A stretch of DNA of 64,000 bases from a virus. Taxonomy: Duplodnaviria > Heunggongvirae > Uroviricota > Caudoviricetes. The DNA is taken from the IMG/VR virus record IMGVR_UViG_3300041407_000207, positions 52,090-116,089 of that record. One strand, 5' to 3'. This document shows, in pieces, positions 1,840 to 57,469 of the stretch (position 1 is the first letter of the stretch; the number at the start of each line of letters is the position of its first letter). The notes below the pieces were generated by a model that was not told where the DNA came from, ran no database searches, and was given only the letters and a program-made list of their open reading frames with translations. The position numbers were made by a program, and so were the translations under genes.

Positions 1840-3096
1840 TCAGTCTTCGTCAGCAGCCGCTTCAGTTTCTGGAAGTGCTGCCGCCGCAGTAGCACGGGCA
1901 TTCAACGCTTCGGTTTCCGCTTGCATTTCTGCAAGGATACGTTCAGCGATCTCATACGTACGACGATCTTCTTCGGAAGCTTCCGGAATCTGGAAGCCGG
2001 TATTCCACATTTCGATGAACGCCGGAGTGTAGAAGTCCGGGTAGTCCGCCTGGAAGATCAGGGACGGGACAAACTTGCTGCCCAGACTTGAACTGATCAT
2101 CTTCGCAGTTTCATAACGAACAGGGTTGTTGGAGAGCATTTCGTCTTCCAACGAAGAGCTCAGTTCGGTGAATACTGCATCCATGGTGCTGGAATTGGCC
2201 AACAGACTACTACGGATGGCTTCCGCAAACTGATTGACATCACGGCTTCGACCAGTAGTTTTCCACGGAGCAGCTCGTCTCAGGACTTCATTAATCGAGA
2301 TCGGGTCGTAGCTGGTACCGTTGAACAGATCGAAGCTGGTACGCCATGAACGAACCGGTTTGCCCATGAGGAAGTTCTGAGCGTAAGCGATTACCTGAGC
2401 AGCCATCAGGTTGTTGATCGCCAGAGTCTGATCGAGATCAGCACACGAACGAGTCGATTCGCCATCGAGCATTTCCGCGTAGTACGCGATATCGATAGGC
2501 AACTCGCTCAACACAGTATCGCCCGGCAGGTAGCCTTGATACCAGTTGTAGATGAACTCCAGATCTTTGGCCGAAGCCGCGTTGATCTTGCCCGTGGTAA
2601 AGAAGCTTACCTGGCCGAAGATGTCTTCGTTACCTGCGTCAATCACTACGCTGGAGTTAGGCTGACCAGCCTGAGTAGACAAACCGGATTTGAGAATCGC
2701 ACGACGAGCTGAGGCGCTATCTACGGCCAGTACGTAAAGAGTTGGACCAGTGAGACGCTCGCGAAGGTTGAACATCTCCAGCGCTTCCAGGTACTCGTCT
2801 GTACCGGCAGCCAAGGTGATGGGCGTGATCTTCAGATCGTAAGCTTTGCTGTAGCGGGCAGCCAAGGCCTGAGCCTTGTTTTTACCGACGTCTGATTTTG
2901 CGAAATTCTGACGGCTGAGATTCTTCTCCTCAACTTCGTCGAAGTCGACCAATACCATTTCAGGCATGATCAACGTAGTGAGTGTGGACATCAGTTGTGC
3001 AATCGCCGGAATCAGGCGAGAACCCGTACCACCACAACCAAAGATCACTACGGTCTGTGGGATGTATGGGAGTTGGAACGTTAAATTTGTAGACAT
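1840..3096 (-). CDS. E1-like ThiF/MoeB-family adenylyltransferase (ubiquitin-activating-like), 418 aa
   Basis: N-terminal Rossmann motif VVIFGCGGTGSRL. The ThiF signature LVDFDEVEEKNLSRQ. Later C-x-DLDQTLAINNL...FLMG. AGGAG ribosome-binding site 10 nt before the ATG. Extra C-terminal extension of about 150 aa. Confidence 0.8.
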   Translation of the reverse strand: MSTNLTFQLPYIPQTVVIFGCGGTGSRLIPAIAQLMSTLTTLIMPEMVLVDFDEVEEKNLSRQNFAKSDVGKNKAQALAARYSKAYDLKITPITLAAGTDEYLEALEMFNLRERLTGPTLYVLAVDSASARRAILKSGLSTQAGQPNSSVVIDAGNEDIFGQVSFFTTGKINAASAKDLEFIYNWYQGYLPGDTVLSELPIDIAYYAEMLDGESTRSCADLDQTLAINNLMAAQVIAYAQNFLMGKPVRSWRTSFDLFNGTSYDPISINEVLRRAAPWKTTGRSRDVNQFAEAIRSSLLANSSTMDAVFTELSSSLEDEMLSNNPVRYETAKMISSSLGSKFVPSLIFQADYPDFYTPAFIEMWNTGFQIPEASEEDRRTYEIAERILAEMQAETEALNARATAAAALPETEAAADED

Positions 3097-3152
3097 GTTG
3101 AGCCTCTCCTGAAAGACAAAAGGGTAGGAAGGAAATCTCCTCTCTACCCTTG

Positions 3153-3160
3153 TTATACCA
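3153..3160 (-). promoter_or_regulatory. extended -10 box TGGTATAAC (minus-strand reading)
   Basis: Member of the conserved cTGGTATAA(C/G) family upstream of minus-strand units. Lies in the 85-aa gene/E1 gene junction. Confidence 0.4.
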
Positions 3161-3161
3161 A

Positions 3162-3419
3162 CTACAAGCCTTGTTCTGCGAGTCGTGCTTTACCCGGAAC
3201 ACTGAGCTCGTCATGAGCCTTGCGGATTATCTCCAACAACCAATCATCTTGGTTTTGATCCGAAAGGACTTCGATGCAGTTGAGGCCGACTGCGTACGCC
3301 ATGGCTACATCGGTGCCCTCTACTTCTTCGACGACGGTGAAGTCGTCTTGTCTCGAGAACTCGATAAGCGGCATGATCGCTTTACGCAGTTCAGCCTCGT
3401 CGTACATCTCATCGCTCAT
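3162..3419 (-). CDS. small acidic hypothetical protein, 85 aa, between the JAB and E1 genes
   Basis: AGGAG ribosome-binding site 7 nt upstream. Same polarity as the operon. The opposite-strand ORF 3150-3425 was judged spurious. Confidence 0.45.
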   Translation of the reverse strand: MSDEMYDEAELRKAIMPLIEFSRQDDFTVVEEVEGTDVAMAYAVGLNCIEVLSDQNQDDWLLEIIRKAHDELSVPGKARLAEQGL

Positions 3420-3469
3420 GAATAGCTCCTGAGGATCGTAGTCAAGCGGAAGTGCTTTGTTTAGGAACC

Positions 3470-4522
3470 CTACTTCTCCGACCCATCCAAATCTTTCAGC
3501 TTCCTCTGAAGACGAGTCGAACCCGGAACCATTCGTTTGCCTTTGCGAGATTGGCGCCCCGATACCTGCGGGCGCTGCGGAAAAGGGAGGAAAGAGTCCT
3601 CCTCAGTTCCGCTACACGGAAAAGGGAAACCAAACTGATTCAGCACCTCCGTATCGTCAGCGCTCAAACCTACAGATTCCAAAGCCATCGAGCCATTATT
3701 TCCGCGAAAGCTTTCGTTGGCTACTACCCGACCTCCGGGCGTTGTAGTGGTACTTCTGTTAGCACCACCCCCAGTGGTCCCGGCCCCACTCGTATTCTGG
3801 GAATACAGAGGACGGGTGTTGTACGTCGGGGCTACATACTGCTGCTTTTTTACCTGTGCCAACCATTCGGCGGGCACCTCCGTGGTTTCATAGGTTTCGA
3901 AAATCAACTCCGGAGGAAGTGGATTGATCTTCATATTGCCAGGCAGGTTGAATCGGAAAACCTTGTCGCAGGTAGTGCTCAGCTTGCCGATTACGCCAGA
4001 AACGTAGCAGTTGCCACGGTCGTCGCTGTCATCGGTACCGCTGAAGAATGCACCCATATCGTTGTGACTATGGATGTCCAGGACGATTACGTCTTCCGAG
4101 GTCAGGAACCCAGCCCAGTTGTAGTTAACCGCACCCGCCGAAACAGTCTGCTCAGGGATTCGAACATGGTAGCCCTGGGTAGGGTTCCAGATTACGAAAG
4201 CCATAGCTTCGAGCTTGGCGCCTTTGTGTTCGATCATTACCTGCTTGAAGAATTGCTCGATCTGGTGCAGGAACTTGATAGGGATCTTGCCCGCAGGAAA
4301 GAACGAATTGGTGTCCTGCTTGCAGTCCATCAGCTCAACTTCTTTCGGAGGAGTCGGGCAGGGAACTGTAACCGAACGACCGTGAGTCAAGTTGGTACGA
4401 CGGAAACAGCCGTTACCGCTGATGATGTAGATTTCTGCGAAGTTTTCGGAGATGGCCTCGTCGAGGTCAGTCTTCGTATCAACTACGCAAGAGAAGTACG
4501 GGAGAATAATTCGTTTGGTCAT
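3470..4522 (-). CDS. JAB/MPN (JAMM) metalloprotease domain protein, 350 aa, with a low-complexity G/T-rich C-terminal tail
   Basis: Exact JAMM motif H151-S-H153-x7-S161-x2-D164 (LDIHSHNDMGAFFSGTDDSDD). Upstream Glu (IPEQ). AAGGA ribosome-binding site. Confidence 0.8.
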   Translation of the reverse strand: MTKRIILPYFSCVVDTKTDLDEAISENFAEIYIISGNGCFRRTNLTHGRSVTVPCPTPPKEVELMDCKQDTNSFFPAGKIPIKFLHQIEQFFKQVMIEHKGAKLEAMAFVIWNPTQGYHVRIPEQTVSAGAVNYNWAGFLTSEDVIVLDIHSHNDMGAFFSGTDDSDDRGNCYVSGVIGKLSTTCDKVFRFNLPGNMKINPLPPELIFETYETTEVPAEWLAQVKKQQYVAPTYNTRPLYSQNTSGAGTTGGGANRSTTTTPGGRVVANESFRGNNGSMALESVGLSADDTEVLNQFGFPFPCSGTEEDSFLPFPQRPQVSGRQSRKGKRMVPGSTRLQRKLKDLDGSEK

Positions 4523-4532
4523 GATTCAATCC

Positions 4533-5315
4533 TTAGTAGGAAACCAGTTCGTAAGGGAAACGTTTTTCTTCTTTGTAGACTTCCGCAAGTTTCTTGAACC
4601 AGCTGGAGTGGCTACTGGAGTCAAACCTGACGTTCATCAGGCGAAGGTCATTGTTGAACGGAGAGTTCGCCAAGACCTGGTAGTACGCCTGGAAAATACG
4701 GAGATCACCACCTTCAACCATGTTGAACATCTGGTTCCCACCCATGCACAACGTGTAGTTGTCATAGCAGTTCGGGAAAGGCATGTAGTTGAAGATGCCT
4801 GACAGCCGACCTGGAATAACCATCGGTAGATCATCACGAGCAACAGGAGTCGAATAGTAATAAGCGTGAGCTACCTCGTGCTTCATACCGTTGTTCGAAA
4901 CCTTGAGGACCAGATGGATCACGATGTTAGGCATCATGATCTCATACTGATTCGTTTTGCTGCTGTTGATGTGAGTCAACGTTACTGGCCGCTCTGGGTA
5001 GTAAAGAGCGAGGTTGAGATTGTTACCTGCATACGCAGTCAGGTAGCAGCCTTCTGGCAGTCGCAGAGTTTCTGCACGGGAGTAGTTGAGAACTCCCTGT
5101 GCAGATTCCGCTAAAACTGCCACGAGATCTTTGATTGAGACTGGCTTTGCGAGACTGGACCCGTGACGCGTGATATGGGCACAGTCATCGAAAAGTTCAA
5201 TCTTCATTACTGGATTGGACATTGAGCCTCCGAGTGCTAAATATTCTTCTGCACTTTGCTTATACCAAAAAGGTGTGCAGTACTTAAATGAAGTCGTCTT
5301 CGTCGTCGTTCCCAC
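4533..5315 (-). CDS. hypothetical protein, 260 aa; possible degenerate E2/UBC-like fold
   Basis: GTG start. Segment NYMPFPNCYDNYTLCMGG has the P-N-x7-C spacing of the E2 HPN...Cys active-site loop (F replaces H). Weak evidence. Confidence 0.45.
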   Translation of the reverse strand: MGTTTKTTSFKYCTPFWYKQSAEEYLALGGSMSNPVMKIELFDDCAHITRHGSSLAKPVSIKDLVAVLAESAQGVLNYSRAETLRLPEGCYLTAYAGNNLNLALYYPERPVTLTHINSSKTNQYEIMMPNIVIHLVLKVSNNGMKHEVAHAYYYSTPVARDDLPMVIPGRLSGIFNYMPFPNCYDNYTLCMGGNQMFNMVEGGDLRIFQAYYQVLANSPFNNDLRLMNVRFDSSSHSSWFKKLAEVYKEEKRFPYELVSY

Positions 5316-6677: not shown

Positions 6678-6705
6678 GATGGAGCCTCCTCCAAATGACT
6701 AAAAG

Positions 6706-6735
6706 AAAAGCCTCCACTAGGGAGGCTTTTTTTGG
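6706..6735. terminator. bidirectional hairpin terminator / attenuator between the 66-aa gene and the 306-aa gene
   Basis: aaagAAGCCTCC-actag-GGAGGCTTttttt; T-runs on both strands. Confidence 0.55.
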
Positions 6736-6789
6736 CTTGAGGAAAGCTAAGACTAAGTCCTAGCTTTCACTCTTGCCGACCGGGCTGGA

Positions 6790-6990
6790 TTAGCAGCCTT
6801 TGGTGCCGACGCGTGCAGCGAAGGTGATGGTACGTTCTTCGCCAGAATCGACGCTGGTGCCGTCCATGCTGTTGATGGCCGGAACGCTCGAACCGTACAT
6901 GCTTTTCACTGCTTCGACCGTTTGAGCACCTGGCAGGGTGAAGGTCTGACCGGTGGTGCTGATAACGATTTTGGTAGTGTTGATAGCCAT
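6790..6990 (-). CDS. small protein, 66 aa; candidate beta-grasp (ThiS/MoaD/ubiquitin-like) with a non-canonical C-terminus ...RVGTKGC
   Basis: AGGAG ribosome-binding site 9 nt upstream and own promoter box at 7054-7061. Length and hydrophobic/Gly pattern (INSMDG...ERTITFAARVGtkgc) parallel ThiS (...DGD.I.I...VGGG). Followed by a terminator, suggesting high expression relative to the enzymes. Confidence 0.45.
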   Translation of the reverse strand: MAINTTKIVISTTGQTFTLPGAQTVEAVKSMYGSSVPAINSMDGTSVDSGEERTITFAARVGTKGC

Positions 6991-26564: not shown

Positions 26565-27587
26565 TTGAGTATCTTCGGTCAAAACCCGGCAGATATCACT
26601 GGTGCAGTCTTTAAGTCTAAAAACTTTTCAGACATTCCAGATAAAGCTGCTGCACGAAATAACCTAAATGTACCGAGTAAAGACGAAGTTCTTTACAACT
26701 CAGTACCCGTAGGTATGATTCTACCGTACTGGGGTTCTGTAGCTCCTGCAGGGTATCTGCCGTGTTCAGGGCAAACAGTTACTTCCGGAACATTTCCGGA
26801 ACTTGTTGCTTTTTTAGGTGGCGGAGCCTCGCAAGTAATTCCGGATCTTCGAGGAGAGTTTCTTCGAGGTTGGGATAACGGTCGTGGAACAGATTTGGGG
26901 CGAGCCATTAAGACTGCTCAAGATGCCCAGACAGAAGATCACAGCCACGTAACTCCCGTGAATGATACGGCGTCTCTCGTAAATATACAAATTGCTAGAG
27001 GTACTGGCAGTTGGCCGTATGGATCATCTTCAGGAATCCTAGTAGGGACTAATACTATTACTTCCGGTGTTTCCTACATCTCTTCTGGAGAAGACAGTTG
27101 GCTTAATACCGGTCCAAACATTAAATTGACAGCCGGAGAGACTCGTCCTCGCAACGTTTCTGTCCTGTATTGCATCAAAGCGTACAGTTCAGTAGCCAAC
27201 TACACTTCTAGCGTTAATATAGCTGGATTGATAAGTGATTATTCCACTCTGAACTCTGCGGCGGTTAAATACGCTGATTTCTTAGGTAGTAATCAGCAAG
27301 TACTTTCTTCAGGATACCAAAAATTGCCAGGAGGCATAATACTTCAGTGGATTCCAGTAGCTATGCCCACTACTGCTTCTGCCAGTACTGCATTTACCTA
27401 TCCAATTGCATTCCCAACAGCGGTTGCTACACTTGCACTGGCCTCTAACCACACCATGAGTACTGCGGGGATTGTTGGTCTCACTATAAATAACCGGAAT
27501 AACTCCGGAGCTAGTTTGATGTGTACTGGATTTACTGGGACAATAGGTGCAGTAGTAGCTACTACCGTAATTGCCATTGGTTATTAA
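26565..27587 (+). CDS. tail fibre protein paralog 1 with phage tail-collar motif, 340 aa
   Basis: TTG start after GGAGAAAA. N-terminus MSIFGQNP..DIPDKAAARNNL. Collar motif LPDLRGEFLRGWDNGRGTDLGRAIKTAQDA. Confidence 0.7.
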   Translation: MSIFGQNPADITGAVFKSKNFSDIPDKAAARNNLNVPSKDEVLYNSVPVGMILPYWGSVAPAGYLPCSGQTVTSGTFPELVAFLGGGASQVIPDLRGEFLRGWDNGRGTDLGRAIKTAQDAQTEDHSHVTPVNDTASLVNIQIARGTGSWPYGSSSGILVGTNTITSGVSYISSGEDSWLNTGPNIKLTAGETRPRNVSVLYCIKAYSSVANYTSSVNIAGLISDYSTLNSAAVKYADFLGSNQQVLSSGYQKLPGGIILQWIPVAMPTTASASTAFTYPIAFPTAVATLALASNHTMSTAGIVGLTINNRNNSGASLMCTGFTGTIGAVVATTVIAIGY

Positions 27588-28242: not shown

Positions 28243-29202
28243 ATGTCTCAATTCGGTCAACCACCTCTCGCCGCTTTTCTCCCGCTAAGGGCTGGTCAAA
28301 ACCTGTCCGACTTGCCTGATAAACCTGCGGCTCTTGCAAATCTCGGGACGCTGAGTACTTCAGATATCATGATGAACTCCGTCCCAATAGGCACCATCAT
28401 CCCATTCTGGGGTAACACTGCTCCAGTAGGATATTTGCCATGTAACGGACAAACTGTCAACTCTGGTACTTTTCCTGACCTTGTTACTTTTCTAGGTGGT
28501 GGCAGTTCACAGGCGCTTCCGGATCTTCGTGGAGAATTCCTCCGTGGATGGGATAATGGTCGTGGGACGGATTTGGGCAGAGCTATTAAAACTGCTCAAG
28601 CAGATGCCCTTAAAAACCACTTCCACTATTTGCCAACCGAAAGCGGTGCGGGCTCGACTTTTGATCCAGCAGGTATAGTTCCGACTATAGTCCTTAAAGA
28701 TGCCCCCGCAGATTGGGTAACAAGAGTAGCAAGTGACAACAATATTTTCGGAACCCCAGCAGGTACGGTAAGAACGTATAGCCAAAGTGCTGACGTAGAG
28801 ACCCGACCTCGCAACATCTCAGTTCTCTACTGCATGAAAGCCTACGGAGCTTTGGTAAACACCTCTACTGCCAATATAGGCAACGTTCTTACCGAACTCA
28901 GTCAATGTACTAAGTTGACTCAATTTGAAGTTTCTCTTTCAGGAAACGGATACCAAAAATTTCCAAACGGTTTGATTATGCAGTGGGGTACGACTTATAT
29001 AAATGCTACAACTGGCTCCGTAACTTTCCCTATAGTTTTCCCAAGTGCATGTACATCAGTAATGACTAATAAACAAACTACTTCGGATGCCCGTAGAACA
29101 AGTACTAGCGCAGCCACCACTGCCGGATTTTCAATATACGGTTGGTCGGGTGCTTCTGCAGCGAACATAGATACTGCCTACTGGATGGCCATAGGATACT
29201 AA
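28243..29202 (+). CDS. tail fibre protein paralog 2 with tail-collar motif, 319 aa
   Basis: N-terminus MSQFGQPP...DLPDKPAALANLG. LPDLRGEFLRGWDNGRGTDLGRAIKTAQADA identical to paralog 1. Confidence 0.7.
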   Translation: MSQFGQPPLAAFLPLRAGQNLSDLPDKPAALANLGTLSTSDIMMNSVPIGTIIPFWGNTAPVGYLPCNGQTVNSGTFPDLVTFLGGGSSQALPDLRGEFLRGWDNGRGTDLGRAIKTAQADALKNHFHYLPTESGAGSTFDPAGIVPTIVLKDAPADWVTRVASDNNIFGTPAGTVRTYSQSADVETRPRNISVLYCMKAYGALVNTSTANIGNVLTELSQCTKLTQFEVSLSGNGYQKFPNGLIMQWGTTYINATTGSVTFPIVFPSACTSVMTNKQTTSDARRTSTSAATTAGFSIYGWSGASAANIDTAYWMAIGY

Positions 29203-29211
29203 GGAAAAATC

Positions 29212-30189
29212 ATGTCTGATTACTTCGGCCAGTCTCCGGACGGCTATCAAAAACCACTCTACGCTGCTAGTAATTTCAGTGATGTAGTAGATAAGCCTGC
29301 AGCCCTTGTTAACCTCGGTGCAGCTTCGGCGGACGACGTTCTAAAAGCAGCAAACCCAATCGGCACCATCATTGCCTTCTACGGGAGTGTTGCCCCGTAC
29401 GGCTACCTCCCTTGCTCGGGTCAAACCGTCTCTAGTTCTACTTTCCCAAGCTTAGTTACTTTCTTGGGCGGAACTACTTCGGCAACTCTTCCGGATCTTC
29501 GGGGGGAATTCCTCCGTGGATGGGATAATGGTAGAGGGATCGATACGGGTCGCACAATTCGAAGTAACCAGAAAGGATCTCTCCTCTATGGAAATGACGA
29601 TAACGGAGCAGAGGTACATGGACTAAATAGCATCAGTGCTAATAGGGCTGGACTTGGATGGGACGTACCTACTATAACGGAATATTCTGGGGTAGGAACC
29701 TATACCAATAGCGGAGTAATAGTACCTGGAAGTGTTTTATTTTCGGCTGCACATTACGGTACTTCCCGCCCACGAAACGTTTCGGTCCTCTACTGCATAA
29801 AAGCCTACGATTCTCCAGTTAACGCAGGTATTTTGAACGTTGCTACTCTGGCTAGTGAAATGGCTCTTAAAACTGCTCTTGCGGATTTCACGGGTACTAA
29901 TCAGACAAAAGCCAATATTGGTTACCAAAAACTTCCAGGAGGAATGATTATTCAATGGGGTGAATCCGTTACTACGAGCGGGACTGGAAATTTGGTTTTC
30001 CCAATAGCTTTCCCGACTGCAGCTGCGCAATTTATCGCAACTGCAACGGCATCTTCACCGGCTAACTATATTGTTACCTGCGGTTCACTAAGCCCTTCAA
30101 ATATCTCGGTATTTACCACAGGAGCAGTAGCTGGATCAACCCCAGTAGCTATCGCGATAGGCTATCGTTGGGTAGTTCTAGGCTATTAA
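29212..30189 (+). CDS. tail fibre protein paralog 3 with tail-collar motif, 325 aa
   Basis: N-terminus MSDYFGQSP..VVDKPAALVNLG. LPDLRGEFLRGWDNGRGIDTGRTIRSNQ. Confidence 0.7.
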   Translation: MSDYFGQSPDGYQKPLYAASNFSDVVDKPAALVNLGAASADDVLKAANPIGTIIAFYGSVAPYGYLPCSGQTVSSSTFPSLVTFLGGTTSATLPDLRGEFLRGWDNGRGIDTGRTIRSNQKGSLLYGNDDNGAEVHGLNSISANRAGLGWDVPTITEYSGVGTYTNSGVIVPGSVLFSAAHYGTSRPRNVSVLYCIKAYDSPVNAGILNVATLASEMALKTALADFTGTNQTKANIGYQKLPGGMIIQWGESVTTSGTGNLVFPIAFPTAAAQFIATATASSPANYIVTCGSLSPSNISVFTTGAVAGSTPVAIAIGYRWVVLGY

Positions 30190-37598: not shown

Positions 37599-38576
37599 TT
37601 ACAGTCCTCGTTTGGCAAGAGCTTTATCTTGGTGGCTACTCCCGTGAAGGAAATCCACCCAACGTTCAAGTTCACAGACGCCACCTGCGGCGTTAACGTG
37701 GCCACCCCCTTCGAACATCTTGGCCATTTGCGACACATCTACTGAATGAGCAGCACCCTGCTTGCTGCGCATGCTCAGAGCTACTTCCCCACCACGAGTA
37801 GCATTGTAGGCAATCACGAAAGGAACTTCGTGACGGTCGTACAGGTACTGGCAAACTTCGGACTGGTAGCACGAGGCATTTACTACGATGCCGCCACCAT
37901 AACCCTGGACTTCAAGATAACGGTAGGAGCTGGCCATCTTTTTGATCTGGGTATCCATCTCCTTGCAGAGAAAGGATCCTGCCTTGATACACTCTTCGGG
38001 AAAGAGACTGAAATCGTAGATTGCGAGTAGGTATGACGCCGGGTCATTGGTTTCTGCCGATGCCGACATCCACGCGATAACTTCTCTAGTCCTAGGCATC
38101 GCCCAAGTCCAGAGATCACGATCTTCTACGTGAAGAGCGAGGTTCGGTATCCCCGAAGGGTTCTCAACGCCTTTACGGAAATACTCCCATGCCAAACGAG
38201 CACCAGATTTCGTCATATCGAAAATCAGATCAAGGCCCTTCATCCCTTCCAACTGTTTCGCATCATCGCGAGCAGTTTTGTGATGGTCTAGGATAACTAC
38301 CTTGATCTCTACTGAGAGTAGATCCTGAACCACTACAGGCTTAGGACAGAAGTCCACAAAAATAATCTGCTCAACATTTTGTGCCAGCGCCAATTGGTAC
38401 GGTGCTTTTGGATCTTCTGCGAAGAATCCATCCCAGTCAGACTGGTTGTAGCCGATAGGGATCAACCCTTCTTTTTCATCACAGTCCAATCGACCTTCAC
38501 GAATTGCTTCCAGAGCTGCCGCAGCAGCCATGGTCCCGTCGAAGCAATGAGAGTGATAAAACACTACTGTTTTCAT
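37599..38576 (-). CDS. DHH-DHHA1 phosphoesterase (NrnA-like nanoRNase/pAp phosphatase family), 325 aa
   Basis: Motif I YHSHCFDGT (DHH-family Asp cluster). Motif III ILDHHK. DHHA1 GGGH motif (MFEGGGHVNAAG). Confidence 0.75.
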   Translation of the reverse strand: MKTVVFYHSHCFDGTMAAAAALEAIREGRLDCDEKEGLIPIGYNQSDWDGFFAEDPKAPYQLALAQNVEQIIFVDFCPKPVVVQDLLSVEIKVVILDHHKTARDDAKQLEGMKGLDLIFDMTKSGARLAWEYFRKGVENPSGIPNLALHVEDRDLWTWAMPRTREVIAWMSASAETNDPASYLLAIYDFSLFPEECIKAGSFLCKEMDTQIKKMASSYRYLEVQGYGGGIVVNASCYQSEVCQYLYDRHEVPFVIAYNATRGGEVALSMRSKQGAAHSVDVSQMAKMFEGGGHVNAAGGVCELERWVDFLHGSSHQDKALAKRGL

Positions 38577-51403: not shown

Positions 51404-51409
51404 GGTTGT

Positions 51410-51421
51410 CAGAGTAAACTA
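51410..51421 (+). promoter_or_regulatory. candidate late-promoter element CAGAGTAAACTA
   Basis: Identical to 7871-7882. 22 nt before the ATG at 51444. Confidence 0.4.
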
Positions 51422-51443
51422 GGCAAATACGTCAAATTATTTA

Positions 51444-53663
51444 ATGAGGAACTTCTGCGTGTCCACACCAATTCTCCAAGACCCTACTTCTGAATTTCAG
51501 CCAGTAGAATTCTACACTGATAAGGACCCCTACTACTATGTCATAGATAACCGTCCGTTACGGAATCTAGACGCGAACATTGCCCAACTGGCAGGTAGTC
51601 TCGATGGCGTTAGTAGATCTGTACTTACAGAAGCAGTCGCAGCCTCGGCAGAAGATGCAGGTCTATACAAAGTAGGGACTAAGACCCTAGGCCTAGAAGC
51701 ATTCCAATACTCAGAAGGGGTGTTCTCCCTAACCCCAGGGGTCCTGTTTCAGTCCGCATCAATAAATTCCGGAGATTCTACCCAAGTACTCAAAAAGGCT
51801 TCGTACCCAGTCTCCACTGCTATCAGTGTCCCAAACACGGTAACTTCCGGGAAAGAACGTAATTACCTCATTCAGGTTCGACTGGTTGACGGTGGTGATG
51901 GTAACCCCTCGTTTTATGACGATGGTACAAATCCTACTACTGCACAAACTTTATTTAATGGCAAATTAGAGGTTGCCGCAGTAGCTGGCTCTGACGCGAA
52001 TATCGGCTCCGCTACCGTACCCGCTGTTACTTCTGGCTGGATTCCGATGTACGTTGTGAAGCGGACTTTCGGCGTAACCGACATGGCCATTTCATCTCAC
52101 GTAAACGCCCCTCCCCGAGCTACTTTGGCTAATGGCACTGCGGTAGAAGGGGTAGTCGTAGAAGCCACTGCCGCAAGGACTATCACGGACGCAGACGCAG
52201 GGTCCTTTATCACAACTACTAGTAGTTCTTCAGTAACTATTACTATCCCTGCTCAGGCCGTAACGCCTTGGGCTGATTCCACTGAAATATTTGTGGAACA
52301 ACTTGGCACCGGTCAAGTTACTTTCGTAGGTGCTAGTGGGGTTACTATCCGGGTTCCAGTAGGATCGGTGGCATCTTCCGCAGGACAATATTCAGTAATG
52401 AGGTTGAAACGTACGGGCCTAAACACTTGGACCGTATTCGGAGATATCGTCCGTGGTGTTCATAACGGTGAAAATTTAGTAACGAACTCCGCGTTCCTAA
52501 CCAGCGGGCTTCTGTACACGTTTTCCAGCGCTAACGGTACTTTGTCGTATGTAGATGCTACTGATGGATCGGTCCCAACTCCTTGCCCCGTAACTAGAGT
52601 TGCAGTTTCTACAAAACTTACCGCTGGAACTTTGGCATTCTCGCAATTTCCTTTGAAAAACGGGAGTACTACTATACGAGTGAGTCCTTCCGAAGTACTA
52701 GATCTTTCTATCTGGGCATGTGTTACTGGCGGAGCTGCTAACTCTGCACGAATGGTAGTGGTGGAGAGTACGCCAGACGGTACTTTTATAGCGAACACCC
52801 GAGTTCTTGCCTACAACAACACCGTTGGGGGCTGGCAGCAACTCTCCGGTTCTATTACTGTTTCCGCTACTACTGGGCTAATTTCTGTTGGTATGTGGAA
52901 CGAGTCTTCGATGCCGGCTGGTGGAGTTATTTATTACGGAGAGCCAGCGATTACCCGTCGAAACTCCTCTATCGCTATTCTTCAAACTACAAAAGCCCCG
53001 GTTGCTAACCCTAGATTTGTAACCGGTTCGGTATCTATCTCCGCCACTGCGGGTCAAGAGCCTCTGCCGGTACTGACTTCTGGGTACACTTCAGGACTTT
53101 CAGGATATAACACGGTAGGTCCTTCCGGCAGCCCGTTGACTCAATTTTGCGCACAAGGATATAGTTTTAGTACCGCAAACTTCGGGCCTGCGTTCATCGG
53201 AGCGAGATCACAAGGGACTTACGGCGCCCACGGGGCAGTCTCTGCAGGTAGATCTTGTTTGACTCTGATGGGGGAAGGTAGTGACGGCACTAACTATCAA
53301 CCAGTAGGTCGTATAGATTTCTATGCAGACGCAACTCCTACTTCGACAAGTTCACCCGGTAGCGTTCAGATTCTTACCACTCCAGTTGGTGCAGTACGAC
53401 CAGCTATTGCGGCCACGTTTGCTAGCAATGGTGCTTTAGCCGTAGTTGCAGGCGCTTCATTCGGTGGTTCGGTAGCTATTACTGGTGGGCTAACAGTAAC
53501 GGCCCCATCCCAACTAGGTCAGTTCACCTTGACCACCCTACCAAGTGCTTCAGCATTCAACGGATACATAATTGATGTGACAAACGCAACTGGCGGGGCT
53601 AAAGTATGTCGCTCTAACGGAACTGTTTGGCAAATCCTTAACACTACTACTACTGTGAGCTAA
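51444..53663 (+). CDS. Ser/Thr/Gly-rich tail fibre or tailspike-like protein, 739 aa
   Basis: Beta-rich low-complexity composition typical of fibres. Conserved-looking N-terminal 150 aa. Confidence 0.5.
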   Translation: MRNFCVSTPILQDPTSEFQPVEFYTDKDPYYYVIDNRPLRNLDANIAQLAGSLDGVSRSVLTEAVAASAEDAGLYKVGTKTLGLEAFQYSEGVFSLTPGVLFQSASINSGDSTQVLKKASYPVSTAISVPNTVTSGKERNYLIQVRLVDGGDGNPSFYDDGTNPTTAQTLFNGKLEVAAVAGSDANIGSATVPAVTSGWIPMYVVKRTFGVTDMAISSHVNAPPRATLANGTAVEGVVVEATAARTITDADAGSFITTTSSSSVTITIPAQAVTPWADSTEIFVEQLGTGQVTFVGASGVTIRVPVGSVASSAGQYSVMRLKRTGLNTWTVFGDIVRGVHNGENLVTNSAFLTSGLLYTFSSANGTLSYVDATDGSVPTPCPVTRVAVSTKLTAGTLAFSQFPLKNGSTTIRVSPSEVLDLSIWACVTGGAANSARMVVVESTPDGTFIANTRVLAYNNTVGGWQQLSGSITVSATTGLISVGMWNESSMPAGGVIYYGEPAITRRNSSIAILQTTKAPVANPRFVTGSVSISATAGQEPLPVLTSGYTSGLSGYNTVGPSGSPLTQFCAQGYSFSTANFGPAFIGARSQGTYGAHGAVSAGRSCLTLMGEGSDGTNYQPVGRIDFYADATPTSTSSPGSVQILTTPVGAVRPAIAATFASNGALAVVAGASFGGSVAITGGLTVTAPSQLGQFTLTTLPSASAFNGYIIDVTNATGGAKVCRSNGTVWQILNTTTTVS

Positions 53664-53665
53664 TA

Positions 53666-54028
53666 ATGGCACTTATCGAACGAAACAGAGATTATGAAAT
53701 TCTTATCCGGATTAGCGAAGATGGTTCCGTAGGTTCTCACTACGTTTCTATCACCGAAATCGTAAAGGACGGTGTGGTAATTAACGCCTCCCTATCTCAA
53801 CCAATTGCTTTGGGTGAAGTAGGTGGGACTACTCTGAATGACAAGCTCGGGGAAATATCTGCCAATACTTTGATTTCAAATGCTAGCCTAACCGCTCAGG
53901 TTGGAGTGCTTACTTCTCAAATCGATGATCTAGGAGATTTGCTTAAGAAATCAGAGAGCGACTTGGAAGAAGCAGAAAATGAAATTTCTAGGCTACAAGG
54001 ATTATTGAACGAATCTCTAGAAAACTAA
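53666..54028 (+). CDS. small coiled-coil protein, 120 aa (possible fibre chaperone)
   Basis: TAATAATG coupling. Confidence 0.4.
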   Translation: MALIERNRDYEILIRISEDGSVGSHYVSITEIVKDGVVINASLSQPIALGEVGGTTLNDKLGEISANTLISNASLTAQVGVLTSQIDDLGDLLKKSESDLEEAENEISRLQGLLNESLEN

Positions 54029-54029
54029 A

Positions 54030-54062
54030 AGAAAAGCCCCGAATTAACGGGGCTTTTTTATT
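54030..54062. terminator. bidirectional rho-independent terminator
   Basis: aaaagaaaAGCCCCG-aattaa-CGGGGCTtttttatt. Confidence 0.65.
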
Positions 54063-54070
54063 ACTCTAAC

Positions 54071-55819
54071 TCACGCCGCCATAGGAAGAGATTCCGTCAG
54101 GTTTGTACGCAGCGATGTCATCGTCGCTTCCGAGAGGACTTGACTGTTACGCAGCACACAGTTCAAATCCCCGTTGTAGCCGACCGGCTTACCTTCGACG
54201 AGTTCATACTCGTTGTCTTGATCGAGTTCAAGAGACAACCAGCCTTTCGCAGACTTTTTGCCAGGGTCGGTCTTCGGCGCTTTGTAGACGTCGATCTTCA
54301 TGTTGCCTACTTCGCCATAGGTGAGCTTCATTGCGAAGCCCAACGAATCTCGAGTCAGGTACTGGAGACTGTAGCTGCCTACGCCTACCACGATGTTTTC
54401 CGCAGAGAAGCCCATTTCCATCAAACGTTGCAGAATTGCTTCGAAACGCTGGATGGTGATGGAGTCGCCGTAGATCATGCGGATGTGTGGGTCCAGGACT
54501 TTGAAACCCTTGGAGTTCACAGTGCCGCCGAATACGTTCCACAGATGTTGGACAGTACCGGTCTCTTCTACCGTGGGAGTGGTAGGTTCGAACTGAGTTA
54601 CTGTTTTGCCGTCCATGTAGTAGAACTGTCTGTCTTTGCGGTTCCATTCGATGGAGACGGTGTAGCGATACACTTGACCTTTCCAACGAGCCAGGCCAGA
54701 AACTTCGCTTTCGCCATGCTGGCCGTGTTCAGTTTCGTCTTGGACTTTTTCAGTAACGTAGTCCAGTACCCAACCGCTAGCGTGTTTCTCAGTCTCGGCT
54801 TCATCTCCGATTTCAAAGATTTCAGCGGTTCCGCAGATCACTTCGATAGGGACGCCAGTATCCGGACGAACTACGAATGGGCCCCCTTCACGAGCCATGA
54901 TCTTGTCTTTGAGACGAGGCAGGGCGTATTCCAGCATGCCGTAATAGTCGTAGCTGTCCATAACGAAGCTGATGGGGCCGACGTTGTCCAGGTAGTCAGA
55001 TAGGAAGGCAATTTCTGCTTCCAGCAGTGAACAGCCACGAACAGCTGCGATCATCTGAATGTTGAGGGTGGTTAGAGAGTGCTCGGTGGCCATGATCGAA
55101 CCGAAGTCCGCCTTGGTTGCACCGTACTCATGCATTGCAGCCAAGCAGCCAGGGATGTTATCCGAACCACTGAACGCAGCCAGGAAAGGAGCACCAGTTT
55201 TGTAGCCAGCAGTCATCCCGGTAAGTCCCCGGAGACTGAAGTCGTGACACTGGTACTTAACGTAGCCATTGTCGTCTGCAGTCAGTGCTGCGTACTTCTC
55301 AGCAACGATGCGGTATTCACGAGCAGCAGTGGCTACGGTACTTGGATACCACAGCTCGTTACTGAAGTGATCCTCCATGTAGCTTGCAAGCCACGCAAAG
55401 TCGTCATGCGTGTTGGTCACCAGCATGATCGGGGTGTTTGCTTTTACTACTCGGCCTTCTTCTACTGCATGGACTTCGATAGGCAAATAGCCAAGAGCGT
55501 GCAGATCCGAAAGACGAGTGAGGTCTGCGTTCGGAATGGTCGCCTCGATCAATGGCCGAATCACTTCTTCAACTTCGTCCCACGAGTCTTCGAAGAACAA
55601 GTTCCAAGCATGGTTGATAGCGCACATCCCCTGGAGAATGCCCGCTGCGACGATCTTACCGTCGTACATCGAGCTGCCTTGGAAGTGCTTGGTATTTCGA
55701 GGAGTAAAGTTACCTTGACCCTTCGTGTAGCCTTTTGGGTACAGACCTGGGTGACAGAACTTGTAAGCGTCACAGAGGATGGCTGCGTACAGTTTTGCTG
55801 GGGGGGTACTCATTCGCAT
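54071..55819 (-). CDS. nicotinamide phosphoribosyltransferase-family enzyme (Nampt/NadV or the NARP1 Namat variant), 582 aa
   Basis: MDSYDYYG and VVRPDTGVP match Nampt VSDSYDIY and IIRPDSGNP. IRMIYGDSITIQRF...VGVGSYSLQYLTRD matches LRVIQGDGVD...FGSGGALLQKLTRD. C-terminal KAPKTDPGKKSAKGWLSL matches KDPVADPNKRSKKGRLSL. Confidence 0.85.
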   Translation of the reverse strand: MRMSTPPAKLYAAILCDAYKFCHPGLYPKGYTKGQGNFTPRNTKHFQGSSMYDGKIVAAGILQGMCAINHAWNLFFEDSWDEVEEVIRPLIEATIPNADLTRLSDLHALGYLPIEVHAVEEGRVVKANTPIMLVTNTHDDFAWLASYMEDHFSNELWYPSTVATAAREYRIVAEKYAALTADDNGYVKYQCHDFSLRGLTGMTAGYKTGAPFLAAFSGSDNIPGCLAAMHEYGATKADFGSIMATEHSLTTLNIQMIAAVRGCSLLEAEIAFLSDYLDNVGPISFVMDSYDYYGMLEYALPRLKDKIMAREGGPFVVRPDTGVPIEVICGTAEIFEIGDEAETEKHASGWVLDYVTEKVQDETEHGQHGESEVSGLARWKGQVYRYTVSIEWNRKDRQFYYMDGKTVTQFEPTTPTVEETGTVQHLWNVFGGTVNSKGFKVLDPHIRMIYGDSITIQRFEAILQRLMEMGFSAENIVVGVGSYSLQYLTRDSLGFAMKLTYGEVGNMKIDVYKAPKTDPGKKSAKGWLSLELDQDNEYELVEGKPVGYNGDLNCVLRNSQVLSEATMTSLRTNLTESLPMAA

Positions 55820-55830
55820 TGGGCTACTCC

Positions 55831-56670
55831 TTAGTAGTTTTCACGGGTTACGTTGAGGATACGGAGGTTACCTTCGCCTTGCAGCTCACGATGGTAACTG
55901 TTGGTGGAGATTACTTCGTCGTAGATACCGGTAACGACGGCAGTCCCCTTGGAGAACAGACCGTGGGTCACTGCCAAGCTTACCGAAGCAGCGCCCTGTT
56001 CTTTCAGGGAGTGATACAGCGGCACGAATGTACCGCAGCCATCACCGATATCATCCAGGACCAGCAGAGTACGACCTTCGACAGTATCGTTGACCCGGGT
56101 TCCGGAGATAGAACCAGTTGCGAGGTCACGAACCTTGGTGCAGTGAATTACGCCAGCCGCACCTACTTTTCTGGCGAACGATTCCGCCTTCTTAGCAGCA
56201 CCACCATCTGGAGCTGCGATATAGACTTCACGCCACGAGGTATAGATATCACGGAAGATATCGAACTGGGTCACAACTTCCAGGCGGTTGAACAGAGCCG
56301 ATGTAACCTCGCTGTGAGGGTCCAGGATCTTCACGCTGGCAAAGTTACAGGCGTTGATATGCTTAGCCACCACGGCGATGCTGAGAGGCTCACCTGGGTT
56401 GCAAACACGGTCTTGTCGGGCGTATGGCATGTACGGGATGAAGGCAGAGACGTCTGCACGAGGATAGACTCGACGAACAGCGTCCTCGATAAACAGCAGG
56501 TTCAAGAGATCGCCCTGAGTAGTGAGTCGAGCTACAATTTCGACCGACTCTACTTTCTCTGGATAGAGACCTCCGTCCTGGATTTGAGGAACTACTTCAC
56601 CACCTGGAAAGTGAATGTAGGTGATTTCTTCGGTGCAGTTGCCTTTGCGCAGATAAATAGTGCCTTTCAT
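55831..56670 (-). CDS. ribose-phosphate pyrophosphokinase-family enzyme (Prs, or the ADPR-pyrophosphorylating Adps variant), 279 aa
   Basis: IPYMPYARQDR (Prs IPYFGYARQDR). PRPP-binding loop LVLDDIGDGCGT (Prs LVDDMIDTGGT). Confidence 0.75.
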   Translation of the reverse strand: MKGTIYLRKGNCTEEITYIHFPGGEVVPQIQDGGLYPEKVESVEIVARLTTQGDLLNLLFIEDAVRRVYPRADVSAFIPYMPYARQDRVCNPGEPLSIAVVAKHINACNFASVKILDPHSEVTSALFNRLEVVTQFDIFRDIYTSWREVYIAAPDGGAAKKAESFARKVGAAGVIHCTKVRDLATGSISGTRVNDTVEGRTLLVLDDIGDGCGTFVPLYHSLKEQGAASVSLAVTHGLFSKGTAVVTGIYDEVISTNSYHRELQGEGNLRILNVTRENY

Positions 56671-57383
56671 TTTTGTTTCCCCTTTCGGAAGCTGTGTTTA
56701 TCGAAGCCGTGAGCCTGGATCAGTTCCTGGTCACTGGCGGTGTGTTTCATTTGATTGGCGGTGTTCAGGGTACCGGAAATAAATGCCGAGATCTCCTGGA
56801 ATACTGAAACGCCATCTTTGAACTTGGTGAGACCCCATTCTTTCAAGCAGGGGTTGGTTATGAGAGTATTGTCGAAAGCGATGAACATCGGTACGTTCAA
56901 AGCAGTGAACACCTCTACGTTTTCACGAAACACCGGAGTTTCGAAGTCTTCGAACAAAGTTCTCTCAGTTCTCCAATTCCGGTACTGGCCATACCAATCC
57001 GCAGGTAGGGCAGTTTTATCGAAAGCTGCGACATAGCTCTTTTTATCGAAAATAGATGAGTGGAGCATTACGCTGAGGTTAGTGGGTTTAGTCTCTCGAA
57101 AAAGAACTACCCGGTGAAGGACTCCGCAGAACCCGAACACTACAACGTCGTAAGGATCTCGACGTGCAATCGTGTCCGCAAAATCTCCGGTGAGACGACG
57201 GCCCCAACCATCACATGCATTGATGACCATTTGGTGGACTGGAGAAGGATTGTCCATCCGCTTACCCGGAGAGTACGGGGTCATGCGGACCTTTTCTTCC
57301 TCCCGGTTGTAACGAACTTGAGTATCCACGCCATACGCAGCGCAGTTATCATAGAAATCACGAAACTTCGAAGTAATTAGCAT
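56667..57383 (-). CDS. hypothetical protein, 238 aa; first gene of the NAD-module operon
   Basis: Overlaps the Prs-like start. No motif recognised. Confidence 0.45.
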   Translation of the reverse strand: MLITSKFRDFYDNCAAYGVDTQVRYNREEEKVRMTPYSPGKRMDNPSPVHQMVINACDGWGRRLTGDFADTIARRDPYDVVVFGFCGVLHRVVLFRETKPTNLSVMLHSSIFDKKSYVAAFDKTALPADWYGQYRNWRTERTLFEDFETPVFRENVEVFTALNVPMFIAFDNTLITNPCLKEWGLTKFKDGVSVFQEISAFISGTLNTANQMKHTASDQELIQAHGFDKHSFRKGKQK

Positions 57384-57408
57384 TTTGTTTCCTCCTTTGC
57401 TAAAGTTC

Positions 57409-57416
57409 TTATACCA
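57409..57416 (-). promoter_or_regulatory. extended -10 box TGGTATAAGAAC
   Basis: Motif family. Divergent from the plus-strand element at 57431-57440. Confidence 0.45.
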
Positions 57417-57430
57417 GGTTCCGACCTGCG

Positions 57431-57440
57431 CTTTAAACTG
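57431..57440 (+). promoter_or_regulatory. candidate promoter/leader element CTTTAAACTG
   Basis: Identical to 7902-7911. Confidence 0.35.
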
Positions 57441-57469
57441 TAAATACCAGTATCTTTCCGAGGTGGTCT

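Follow-up and report, generated by a model that had tools for sequence, protein, structure and literature searches.

The operon described here lies in a 64,000-nucleotide stretch of viral DNA (Caudoviricetes; IMG/VR virus record IMGVR_UViG_3300041407_000207, positions 52,090 to 116,089), which is termed the window. Three minus-strand genes between window positions 54071 and 57383 make up the operon. The second and third most probably encode Adps and Namat, the two enzymes of the NAD+ reconstitution pathway NARP1. The pair would be a divergent but complete two-enzyme copy; from the sequence evidence given below we set the probability of this assignment at about 0.9. NARP1 was first described in 2024 and is reported from about 4% of sequenced phages. 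It consists of Adps plus Namat and was validated in the phages Bas63, SpβL1 and FADO; NARP2 consists of the Nampt and Nmnat of KVP40. The two groups of Nampt-like proteins form separate clades and no phage was found that carries both pathways (Osterman et al., bioRxiv 10.1101/2024.02.11.579819).

A first-pass annotation of this DNA, made from the letters alone, had placed three minus-strand open reading frames (ORFs) here; their coordinates matched exactly. The features of the locus are the following (aa, amino acids; nt, nucleotides; bp, base pairs):

56667-57383, minus strand: gene A, 238 aa; heads the transcription unit and is translationally coupled to adps
55831-56670, minus strand: adps, 279 aa; predicted Prs-like ADP-ribose pyrophosphokinase, NARP1 enzyme 1
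54071-55819, minus strand: namat, 582 aa; predicted Nampt-like nicotinamide ADP-ribose transferase, NARP1 enzyme 2
54032-54057, minus strand: predicted intrinsic terminator, a 10-pair stem (6 GC) with a 6-nt loop, AAAAGCCCCGTTAATTCGGGGCTTTT then CTTTTAGTTT
57384-57469, between gene A (minus) and PhoH (plus): divergent intergenic region of 86 bp, containing the Shine-Dalgarno sequence of gene A

The layout is that of one tightly coupled operon, as the first-pass annotation had claimed. The gene A stop and the adps start overlap as ATGA. The adps stop codon TAA is followed by GGAG and, after another 7 nt, by the namat ATG, i.e. the spacer is 11 nt long. Upstream of gene A is a consensus Shine-Dalgarno sequence, AAAGGAGG, and AAAGGAGGAAACAAAATG lies in the 86-bp intergenic region ahead of the gene. 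Presumably the operon promoter is located in this region; a sigma-70-like site was looked for on the minus strand and none was found. A single, strong terminator hairpin with a T-run begins 14 nt past the namat stop. It has an A-run on one side and a T-run on the other and may terminate the convergent plus-strand genes as well. The divergent position of PhoH with respect to gene A is kept in relatives. Because the 3.3-kb region matched none of 50,697 phage records in megablast, all comparisons were made at the protein level.

Profile searches placed the 582-aa protein in the Nampt family and the 279-aa protein in the Prs family far beyond chance, as had been proposed. For the larger protein Pfam NAPRTase (E 1e-25), phrog_448 'nicotinamide phosphoribosyl transferase' (E 9e-142) and NF006629 (386 bits) were matched, and the motifs VMDSYDYYG, VVRPDTGVP, SLQYLTRD and KAPKTDPGKKSAKGWLSL were read. 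Its top matches among solved structures were 9W5W/9W5X, the SpβL1 Namat (285 bits); the Nampts of human, mouse and rat reached about 163 bits. In blastp it scored 309 bits with the Bas63 Namat and lowest, 71-130 bits, with NARP2-type proteins.

Namats choose their substrate by a selectivity clamp, described in the solved SpβL1 Namat structure, which is composed of the SCH motif and the SCL loop (Lan et al., PMC12774641). In SCH, which has the form GS-X-Φ-X-Φ-X-Φ-TRD, the third and the seventh residue are aromatic. The third SCL residue is R, K or Y, and if it is K or Y the following residue stacks on the adenine (PMC12774641). The window SCH reads G481-S-Y483-S-L-Q-Y487-L-T-R-D491. Thus both aromatics are present, Y483 at position 3 and Y487 at position 7. 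Φ1 (S) and Φ2 (Q) agree with the consensus; Φ3 is Leu, where N or V is usual. The window SCL, TPR-N-T-K44-H45-F46, aligns with S-D-K-W of Bas63 and S-S-K-H of CR9 and obeys the rule; His45 would stack on the adenine. The catalytic core is complete (D17, Y19, F194, R197, D220, H247, R318, D320), the SpβL1 core being D13, Y15, F189, R192, D215, R306, D308 and the catalytic His (PMC12774641). At all 20 SpβL1 ligand-contact positions the window residue was identical or of Namat type. The motifs quoted in the first-pass annotation were present, with the exception of 'GDG': the sequence reads YGDSIT, i.e. G451-D452-S453. As GD[SA] is the Namat state and GDG the Nampt state, this slip had hidden one of the positions which discriminate Nampt from Namat.

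The comparison panel comprised Adps-linked proteins from annotated phage records (SpβL1, Bas63, CR9, PN09, phi92, ICP1, phage K and Tyson), NARP2-type Nampts from K64-1 and IME-SM1, which have an adjacent Nmnat, and from D486 and KMI9, which have no Prs-like gene nearby, and human NAMPT (sequence checked against 2GVG; 1131 bits, full length). At every group-separating position, S195, S453, S482, Y483 and Y487, the window protein was in the Namat state. The five Nampts of the panel, four from phages and the human one, differ at the equivalents of SpβL1 S190, A362, S391, F392 and Y396. They read G-G-G-L-L-Q and IQGD[GE], whereas the window reads GSYSLQ and IYGDS. In a neighbour-joining tree of 16 taxa the NARP2-type and human Nampts were split from the Adps-linked proteins, including the window protein on a separate long branch, in 100% of 300 bootstraps. 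The same motif classes were seen in independent IMG/VR loci: L102 has an Adps and reads GSYTYQY/IYGDSI; L085 and L103 have no Adps and read GGGLLQ/IQGDGI. Motif class follows Adps adjacency across these loci. An insertion of about 85 aa accounts for the length of 582 aa. It was rejected as a novelty because Bas63 (593 aa), CR9, PN09 and phi92 have it at the same site.

In Pfam the 279-aa protein fell into Pribosyl_synth and Pribosyltran_N; it also matched phrog_619 (E 2e-79) and, with 137.6 bits at a cut-off of 113, TIGR01251. It remained far under every NCBIfam Prs equivalog cut-off, e.g. 116 versus 296 and 81 versus 438. The motifs IPYMPYARQDR and DDIGDGCGT were read. In the solved ICP1 Adps the adenine is contacted by F18, R87 and F92; H121, D161, D212, D213 and D216 are conserved, K185 is catalytic, and a remodelled PP loop, C215-S220, is accompanied by an F221/F223 lid (Liu et al., PMC13586617). 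Absence of the C-terminal α11-α12 module was called a 'defining evolutionary signature' of Adps (PMC13586617). F21, R85, H119, D155, D206, D207, D210 and T214 of the window protein map to ICP1 Adps, and its catalytic lysine is K179, at the β-hairpin position (K185 in ICP1, K162 in SpβL1). The ICP1 residue map was made from two joined frames and matches the numbering in PMC13586617; ICP1 Adps was kept outside the tree described below. By alignment, the window PP loop is DDIGDGCGTF, i.e. DG-CGT-F as opposed to DT-GGT-[LI] in canonical Prs. The equivalent of position 217 is G211, which is Thr in three of three cellular Prs, and that of 221 is the lid residue F215, which is Leu or Ile in the same three. 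A non-Thr at 217 together with Phe at 221 was found in all ten Namat-linked proteins of the panel. Past the THG motif the window protein has 45 residues versus 67 in E. coli Prs.

Pairwise scores of the window Adps were 135-208 bits with phage Adps versus 71-77 bits with cellular Prs. A neighbour-joining tree of 13 taxa, with the Prs of E. coli, M. smegmatis and S. solfataricus, separated the Namat-linked phage proteins, including that of the window, from the cellular enzymes in 85% of 300 bootstraps, which is support of moderate strength. Gene order points in the same direction: a Namat homologue is immediately near 97% of Adps-clade genes and only rarely adjoins bacterial prs (Osterman et al., bioRxiv 10.1101/2024.02.11.579819). 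What is shown directly is how the genes are organised, to which families and clades the proteins belong, and which signatures their residues carry. On the family, clade and residue evidence for both proteins the pair was therefore assigned to NARP1.

Several points weigh against the assignment. SCH position 5 of the window Namat is Leu, where usually an aromatic is found. Identities to the validated enzymes are modest: Namat shares 36.6% of its residues with that of Bas63, measured along the whole protein, and about 34% with that of SpβL1; for Adps the values are 35% and 33%, respectively. Both trees were built by neighbour joining, a distance method, from small panels (16 and 13 taxa), and the sequences of two Prs outgroups, taken from PDB alignments, are incomplete. 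ICP1 F92, C215 and F223 are replaced by Cys, Gly and Pro in the window Adps; these positions vary in the validated SpβL1 and Bas63 enzymes too. Finally, the window covers 64 kb of a genome of perhaps 165-170 kb, so that an Nmnat may lie elsewhere; within the window tblastn with the K64-1 Nmnat and the IME-SM1 NadM found none (best E 0.3). The three operon proteins were also searched for the families of NARP3, a PnuC-like membrane nicotinamide-riboside transporter plus a bifunctional NadR-like enzyme (PMC13464706). No match was found among these three; the remaining window proteins were not scanned for them.

Two observations concern individual homologues. The second-closest solved structure to the window Namat, 9KE8/9KEO (260 bits), is deposited as 'Nicotinamide phosphoribosyltransferase', and its motif GAQTYQRNTRD is a hybrid of the Namat and Nampt consensus. 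The idea that it is the KVP40 NadV was rejected, as the best match in tblastn against the phage collection was 68.5%. In the Vibrio phage ICP1 isolate 2019_Mat_E (locus L016, MW794192.1) the Adps frame is broken at about 2031-3000: a stop follows DLTVDKVGG, and the protein sequence resumes in a different frame as GGNILIVDDICDGAASF. Either a frameshift inactivates NARP1 in this isolate or the break is a sequencing error.

By analogy with the characterised homologues two reactions and a counter-defence role can be proposed. The trigger would be a host SIR2, TIR or SEFIR NADase which cuts NAD+ into ADP-ribose (ADPR) and nicotinamide; the NAD+-depleting defences against which NARP1 is directed are SIR2-HerA, DSR1/2, type I Thoeris and SEFIR. 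The 279-aa Adps would then use K179 as the catalytic lysine and move the β-γ pyrophosphate from ATP onto the distal ribose of ADPR, at O1'', yielding ADPR-pyrophosphate (ADPR-PP) and AMP. In a second step the 582-aa Namat would swap the pyrophosphate of ADPR-PP for nicotinamide and form NAD+ directly, with a Nampt-like core of R318, D320, H247 and the F194/Y19 sandwich. ADPR-PP may be chosen over phosphoribosyl pyrophosphate (PRPP) by an adenine clamp made of Y483 and Y487 in SCH and K44/H45 in SCL. Both enzymes would be made from one transcript, with the 238-aa gene at its start and the terminator just past namat.

Relatives of the locus revealed gain, loss and divergence. In locus L008 (GCA_019702715.1, JAAQVM011840904.1) an 82-aa ORF (6705-6953) directly follows the gene A homologue. 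It consists of Adps residues 1-44 joined in frame to the last 38 residues of Namat. Such an ORF is the scar of a deletion by which this lineage lost about 2.3 kb of NARP1 and kept gene A intact. Insertion of NARP1 behind gene A in some lineages was considered and rejected, since the scar denotes a loss, in that lineage at least. The scar is direct evidence that the NARP1 cassette is dispensable cargo which phages gain and lose. Compared with locus L006 the window proteins are 99.8% (SNF2 helicase), 99.3% (Adps), 99.0% (Namat) and 88.5% (PhoH) identical. Gene A is 57.1% identical overall to its counterpart (L006:6001-6690). Residues 1-20 and 201-238 are 100% identical and residues 61-160 only 20-50%. 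This island of divergence, at about 56780-57200 of the window, is sharply bounded. The sequences suggest either a recombination swap of the gene A centre or strong diversification.

Directly after namat the window contains a 2.67-kb insertion (51404-54073) with respect to L006, which is 93-97% identical and has about 50 bp there. Two ORFs within it converge on namat and share the hairpin at 54032-54057:

51444-53663, plus strand: tail-fibre-like ORF, 739 aa (phrog_8780/16053)
53666-54028: ORF of 120 aa

Rearranged NARP1 genes were noted elsewhere too. The Pectobacterium phages phiTE, CB7, DU_PP_I and DU_PP_IV have Namat annotated in two pieces around an HNH endonuclease, and the Adps of phiTE, too, adjoins an HNH gene. 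This suggests a homing-endonuclease or intron invasion of NARP1 genes in these phages. In Pseudomonas phage PN09 (locus L014) two ORFs lie between Adps (751-1644) and Namat (2974-4764); the product of one (2106-2906) is of low complexity, with a high content of G, N, Y and S. Therefore, NARP1 genes are not always contiguous.

Gene A had been brought up in the first-pass annotation as a possible third pathway component. It has no Pfam or NCBIfam match and hits only phrog_4243 'unknown function'. When gene A and 23 homologues were scanned against Pfam at E<=1, only a spurious PML_CC match emerged. As a Macro or RyR match is absent, gene A is neither the Adpp of the three-gene variant NARP1-AP nor RyDEP. 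Nor did a phosphatase or glycosidase family emerge from a PHROGs scan of three flanking ORFs (the 739-aa, the 120-aa and an Alginate_lyase2-like ORF); small flanking ORFs were not scanned. A word-indexed search retrieved 26 relatives. A full profile search reached 6,989 cluster representatives (E<=1e-3), 4,660 of them with E<=1e-10, the approximately 7,000 clusters being defined at 50% identity. Members are almost all standalone proteins of about 215-270 aa. Invariant motifs are M.I.S.F.DYYD...G.D at the N-terminus and GFDK.SFRK at the C-terminus, and family-wide the termini are most conserved. The resemblance of the core to an ATP-grasp fold is borderline. In structure prediction a shallow alignment of 21 sequences gave a predicted local distance difference test score (pLDDT) of 74 with unconfident termini, which an alignment of 63 sequences remedied.

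Could gene A nevertheless be a NARP1 accessory comparable to Adpp or RyDEP, an ATP-grasp-like enzyme which turns another NAD-derived product or signal into ADPR, or which feeds or protects the pathway in some other way? The shared transcript with its ATGA translational coupling is compatible with this, and accessory genes are known in other NARP1 operons. In lineages with at least 51% gene A identity the order PhoH (divergent), gene A, adps, namat was found in five of five sampled. Even the sharp island of divergence is what an arms-race gene would show. Against this, an unrelated 77-aa ORF splits gene A from adps in one of the five, L004. The wider family gave a different picture. L008, at 44% gene A identity, keeps the slot, having lost NARP1 by in-frame deletion with gene A intact. 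In L026, at 42%, gene A is followed by RtcB, RNase_T and TerB and there are no NAD genes. The distant homologues in the cultured phages DLP_6, RsoM2USA and Arash have no NAD genes adjacent.

An IMG/VR scan with the N-terminal family motif gave at least 120 loci; among the matches listed 111 were confirmed by a hidden Markov model. NAD genes, i.e. Nampt/Namat- or Prs/Adps-like, were nearby in seven of the 111 (6%), and about 94% of these diverse loci are thus without one. The modules lie within a few kb in L085, L102, L103, L109, L129, L144 and L158. L102 (Adps plus Namat) and L158 (Adps) are of NARP1 type, L085 and L103 (Nampt with GGGLLQ) of NARP2 type; in L085 an ATP-dependent DNA ligase is the next gene. 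Clustering of 1,127 neighbouring ORFs from 124 loci revealed no dominant partner, the maximum being five loci per family. Recurrent neighbours were Metallophos, two RNA-ligase clusters, Ro60 (TROVE+vWA), Nampt, NADAR and an AAA_5 ATPase, with the Nampt family tied as the commonest. By a rough, unmatched estimate NAD genes co-locate with the gene A family several-fold above chance. Because the estimate is unmatched, we treat co-location as shared residence in an auxiliary-gene region and not as evidence for a common pathway. Moreover, the validated Bas63 and SpβL1 operons function without such a gene. A three-component pathway is thus quite unlikely: gene A is co-transcribed with adps and namat, yet is probably not a dedicated part of NARP1.

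Another possibility, unlikely as well, is that with gene A a very large phage family, so far unannotated, has its founding member and that this family is engaged in an NAD+/ADP-ribose or RNA-repair arms race. It was considered because gene A heads NARP1 operons in this clade, because the family recurs within a few kb of NARP1/NARP2-type genes, RNA and DNA ligases, Ro60 and NADAR in diverse large phages, and because the central domain is swapped or hypervariable between phages which otherwise are 99% identical. Gene A could then be a new ATP-dependent counter-defence enzyme or a decoy with a quickly evolving specificity domain. In Stenotrophomonas phage DLP_6 a distant homologue (locus L001, 5001-5762) is located within a dense array of tRNA genes. 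Taken together, this location, the RtcB in L026 and the neighbouring RNA ligases and Ro60 hint at surroundings concerned with RNA repair.

As to the enzyme pair itself, a canonical salvage pathway would consist of a true PRPP synthetase and a true Nampt, which form nicotinamide mononucleotide (NMN), with NAD+ made by host NadR/PncC or by a phage Nmnat located elsewhere. The Pfam and NCBIfam names fit this, the Prs catalytic motifs PYARQDR, DPHS, PDGG and DD..D..GT are present in the 279-aa protein, and Namat enzymes have residual PRPP-to-NMN activity in vitro (PMC12774641; bioRxiv 10.1101/2024.02.11.579819). However, both proteins are outside the cellular and NARP2 clades. The 279-aa protein is below the cut-off of all Prs equivalogs, lacks the PP-loop Thr and the C-terminal extension and has the Phe lid of Adps; the 582-aa protein shows every Namat-specific state. 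In addition, the SpβL1 Adps, which is from this clade as well, formed no product in a canonical Prs test (bioRxiv 10.1101/2024.02.11.579819), and no Nmnat was detected in the 64-kb window. Canonical salvage is therefore highly improbable. The first-pass annotation had offered it beside NARP1 and considered the two inseparable by eye. With determinants published in 2026 they could be separated from the sequence: signatures, structure match and phylogenetic placement (Namat clade 100%, Adps clade 85% of bootstraps), along with substrate-pocket residues of NARP1 type, all favoured NARP1. Nor did its portrayal of a Nampt plus PRPP-synthetase pair as a trait of T4-like phages and vibriophages hold, as the NARP2-type phages sampled have either an Nmnat or no Prs-like neighbour, and KVP40 is described as Nampt plus Nmnat (bioRxiv 10.1101/2024.02.11.579819). 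Of its joint label 'NARP1/NARP2' the first half stands; the second, a KVP40-type Nampt partnered with an Nmnat, shares no more than the protein superfamily with the window and can practically be discarded, given GSYSLQ and IYGDS in place of GGGLLQ and IQGDG, the lowest similarity being to NARP2-type proteins (71-130 bits), the adjacent Adps gene, no Nmnat in the 64-kb window and the finding that the two pathways did not occur together in any phage (bioRxiv 10.1101/2024.02.11.579819).

The window derives from an uncultured large phage with related contigs of up to 165-169 kb. The nearest cultured relative, judged by the helicase, is Salmonella phage Arash (37.6%). Other features recorded in the window are

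26565-27587, 28243-29202 and 29212-30189, plus strand: three tandem paralogous tail-collar-fibre genes (phrog_523, E 1e-40 to 4e-44)
37599-38576, minus strand: DHH phosphoesterase (phrog_4771, E 8e-62)
39140-40645, minus strand: phrog_850 'RNA-binding protein', 501 aa

The 501-aa protein is suspected to be Ro60/TROVE-like; Ro60-type genes also recur beside gene A homologues in other phages.

The operon is a divergent addition to an already known system, and a further copy of NARP1 is unsurprising. Its value is that the structure-derived rules of 2026, i.e. the clamp, the PP loop, the Phe lid and the C-terminal truncation, separate NARP1 from Prs plus Nampt and from NARP2, and that they hold for a deep uncultured lineage, whose Namat and Adps are no more than 40% and 47% identical, respectively, to homologues from cultured phages. 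The L008 scar makes turnover of the cassette visible. The gene A family, which is huge and has an unusual conservation pattern and a sharp island of divergence, deserves follow-up more than the NARP1 genes do.

How does the window operon compare with known systems? With NARP2 and the cellular Nampt and Prs it shares the superfamilies and the core phosphoribosyl- and pyrophosphoryl-transfer chemistry. It differs in clade and in the substrate-determining residues, and it lacks the regulatory/filament module of Prs and, within the 64-kb window, an Nmnat. A third gene accompanies adps and namat also in NARP1-AP (Adps-Adpp-Namat, Vibrio phage Gary), and one is present in the operon or neighbourhood of the RyDEP-associated NARP1 of mycobacteriophage DyoEdafos. 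However, the third gene of the window has neither a Macro (PF01661, PF14519, PF20016) nor a RyR domain, lies upstream of the enzymes and not between them, and belongs to an unrelated family.

The ICP1 Adps, for which crystal and cryo-electron microscopy structures exist (PMC13586617), has equivalents in the window for F18, R87, H121, D161, K185, D212, D213, D216, G217 and F221, and its missing C-terminal α11-α12 module is missing in the window Adps, too. A218/A219 are replaced by Cys/Gly, positions which vary among other Adps. The Bacillus phage SpβL1 supplied the best solved-structure match, with catalytic and ligand-contact positions conserved or of Namat type and K162 of its Adps equal to window K179. 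In contrast, its Namat is a short form (491 aa) which lacks the insertion of about 85 aa and has Arg40 in the SCL instead of the Lys44-His45 of the window, and the PP loop of its Adps is of the DDLSSFGGTF type.

In Bas63 (Escherichia phage JohannRWettstein, bas63_0079/0080) NARP1 was validated in vivo, and deletion of the operon sensitised the phage to SIR2-HerA (bioRxiv 10.1101/2024.02.11.579819). Its phage backbone is unrelated to that of the window, whose nearest cultured relative is Arash, and the 238-aa leader gene is absent upstream of its operon. The enzymes themselves are arranged and built alike. In both phages adps precedes namat in a single operon and Namat is of the long form (593 versus 582 aa) with insertions at the same two sites. 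The SCH/SCL sequences are GSYTYQYMTRD / K-W in Bas63 and GSYSLQYLTRD / K-H in the window, and the PP loops, DDICDGGRTF and DDIGDGCGTF, are of the same type.

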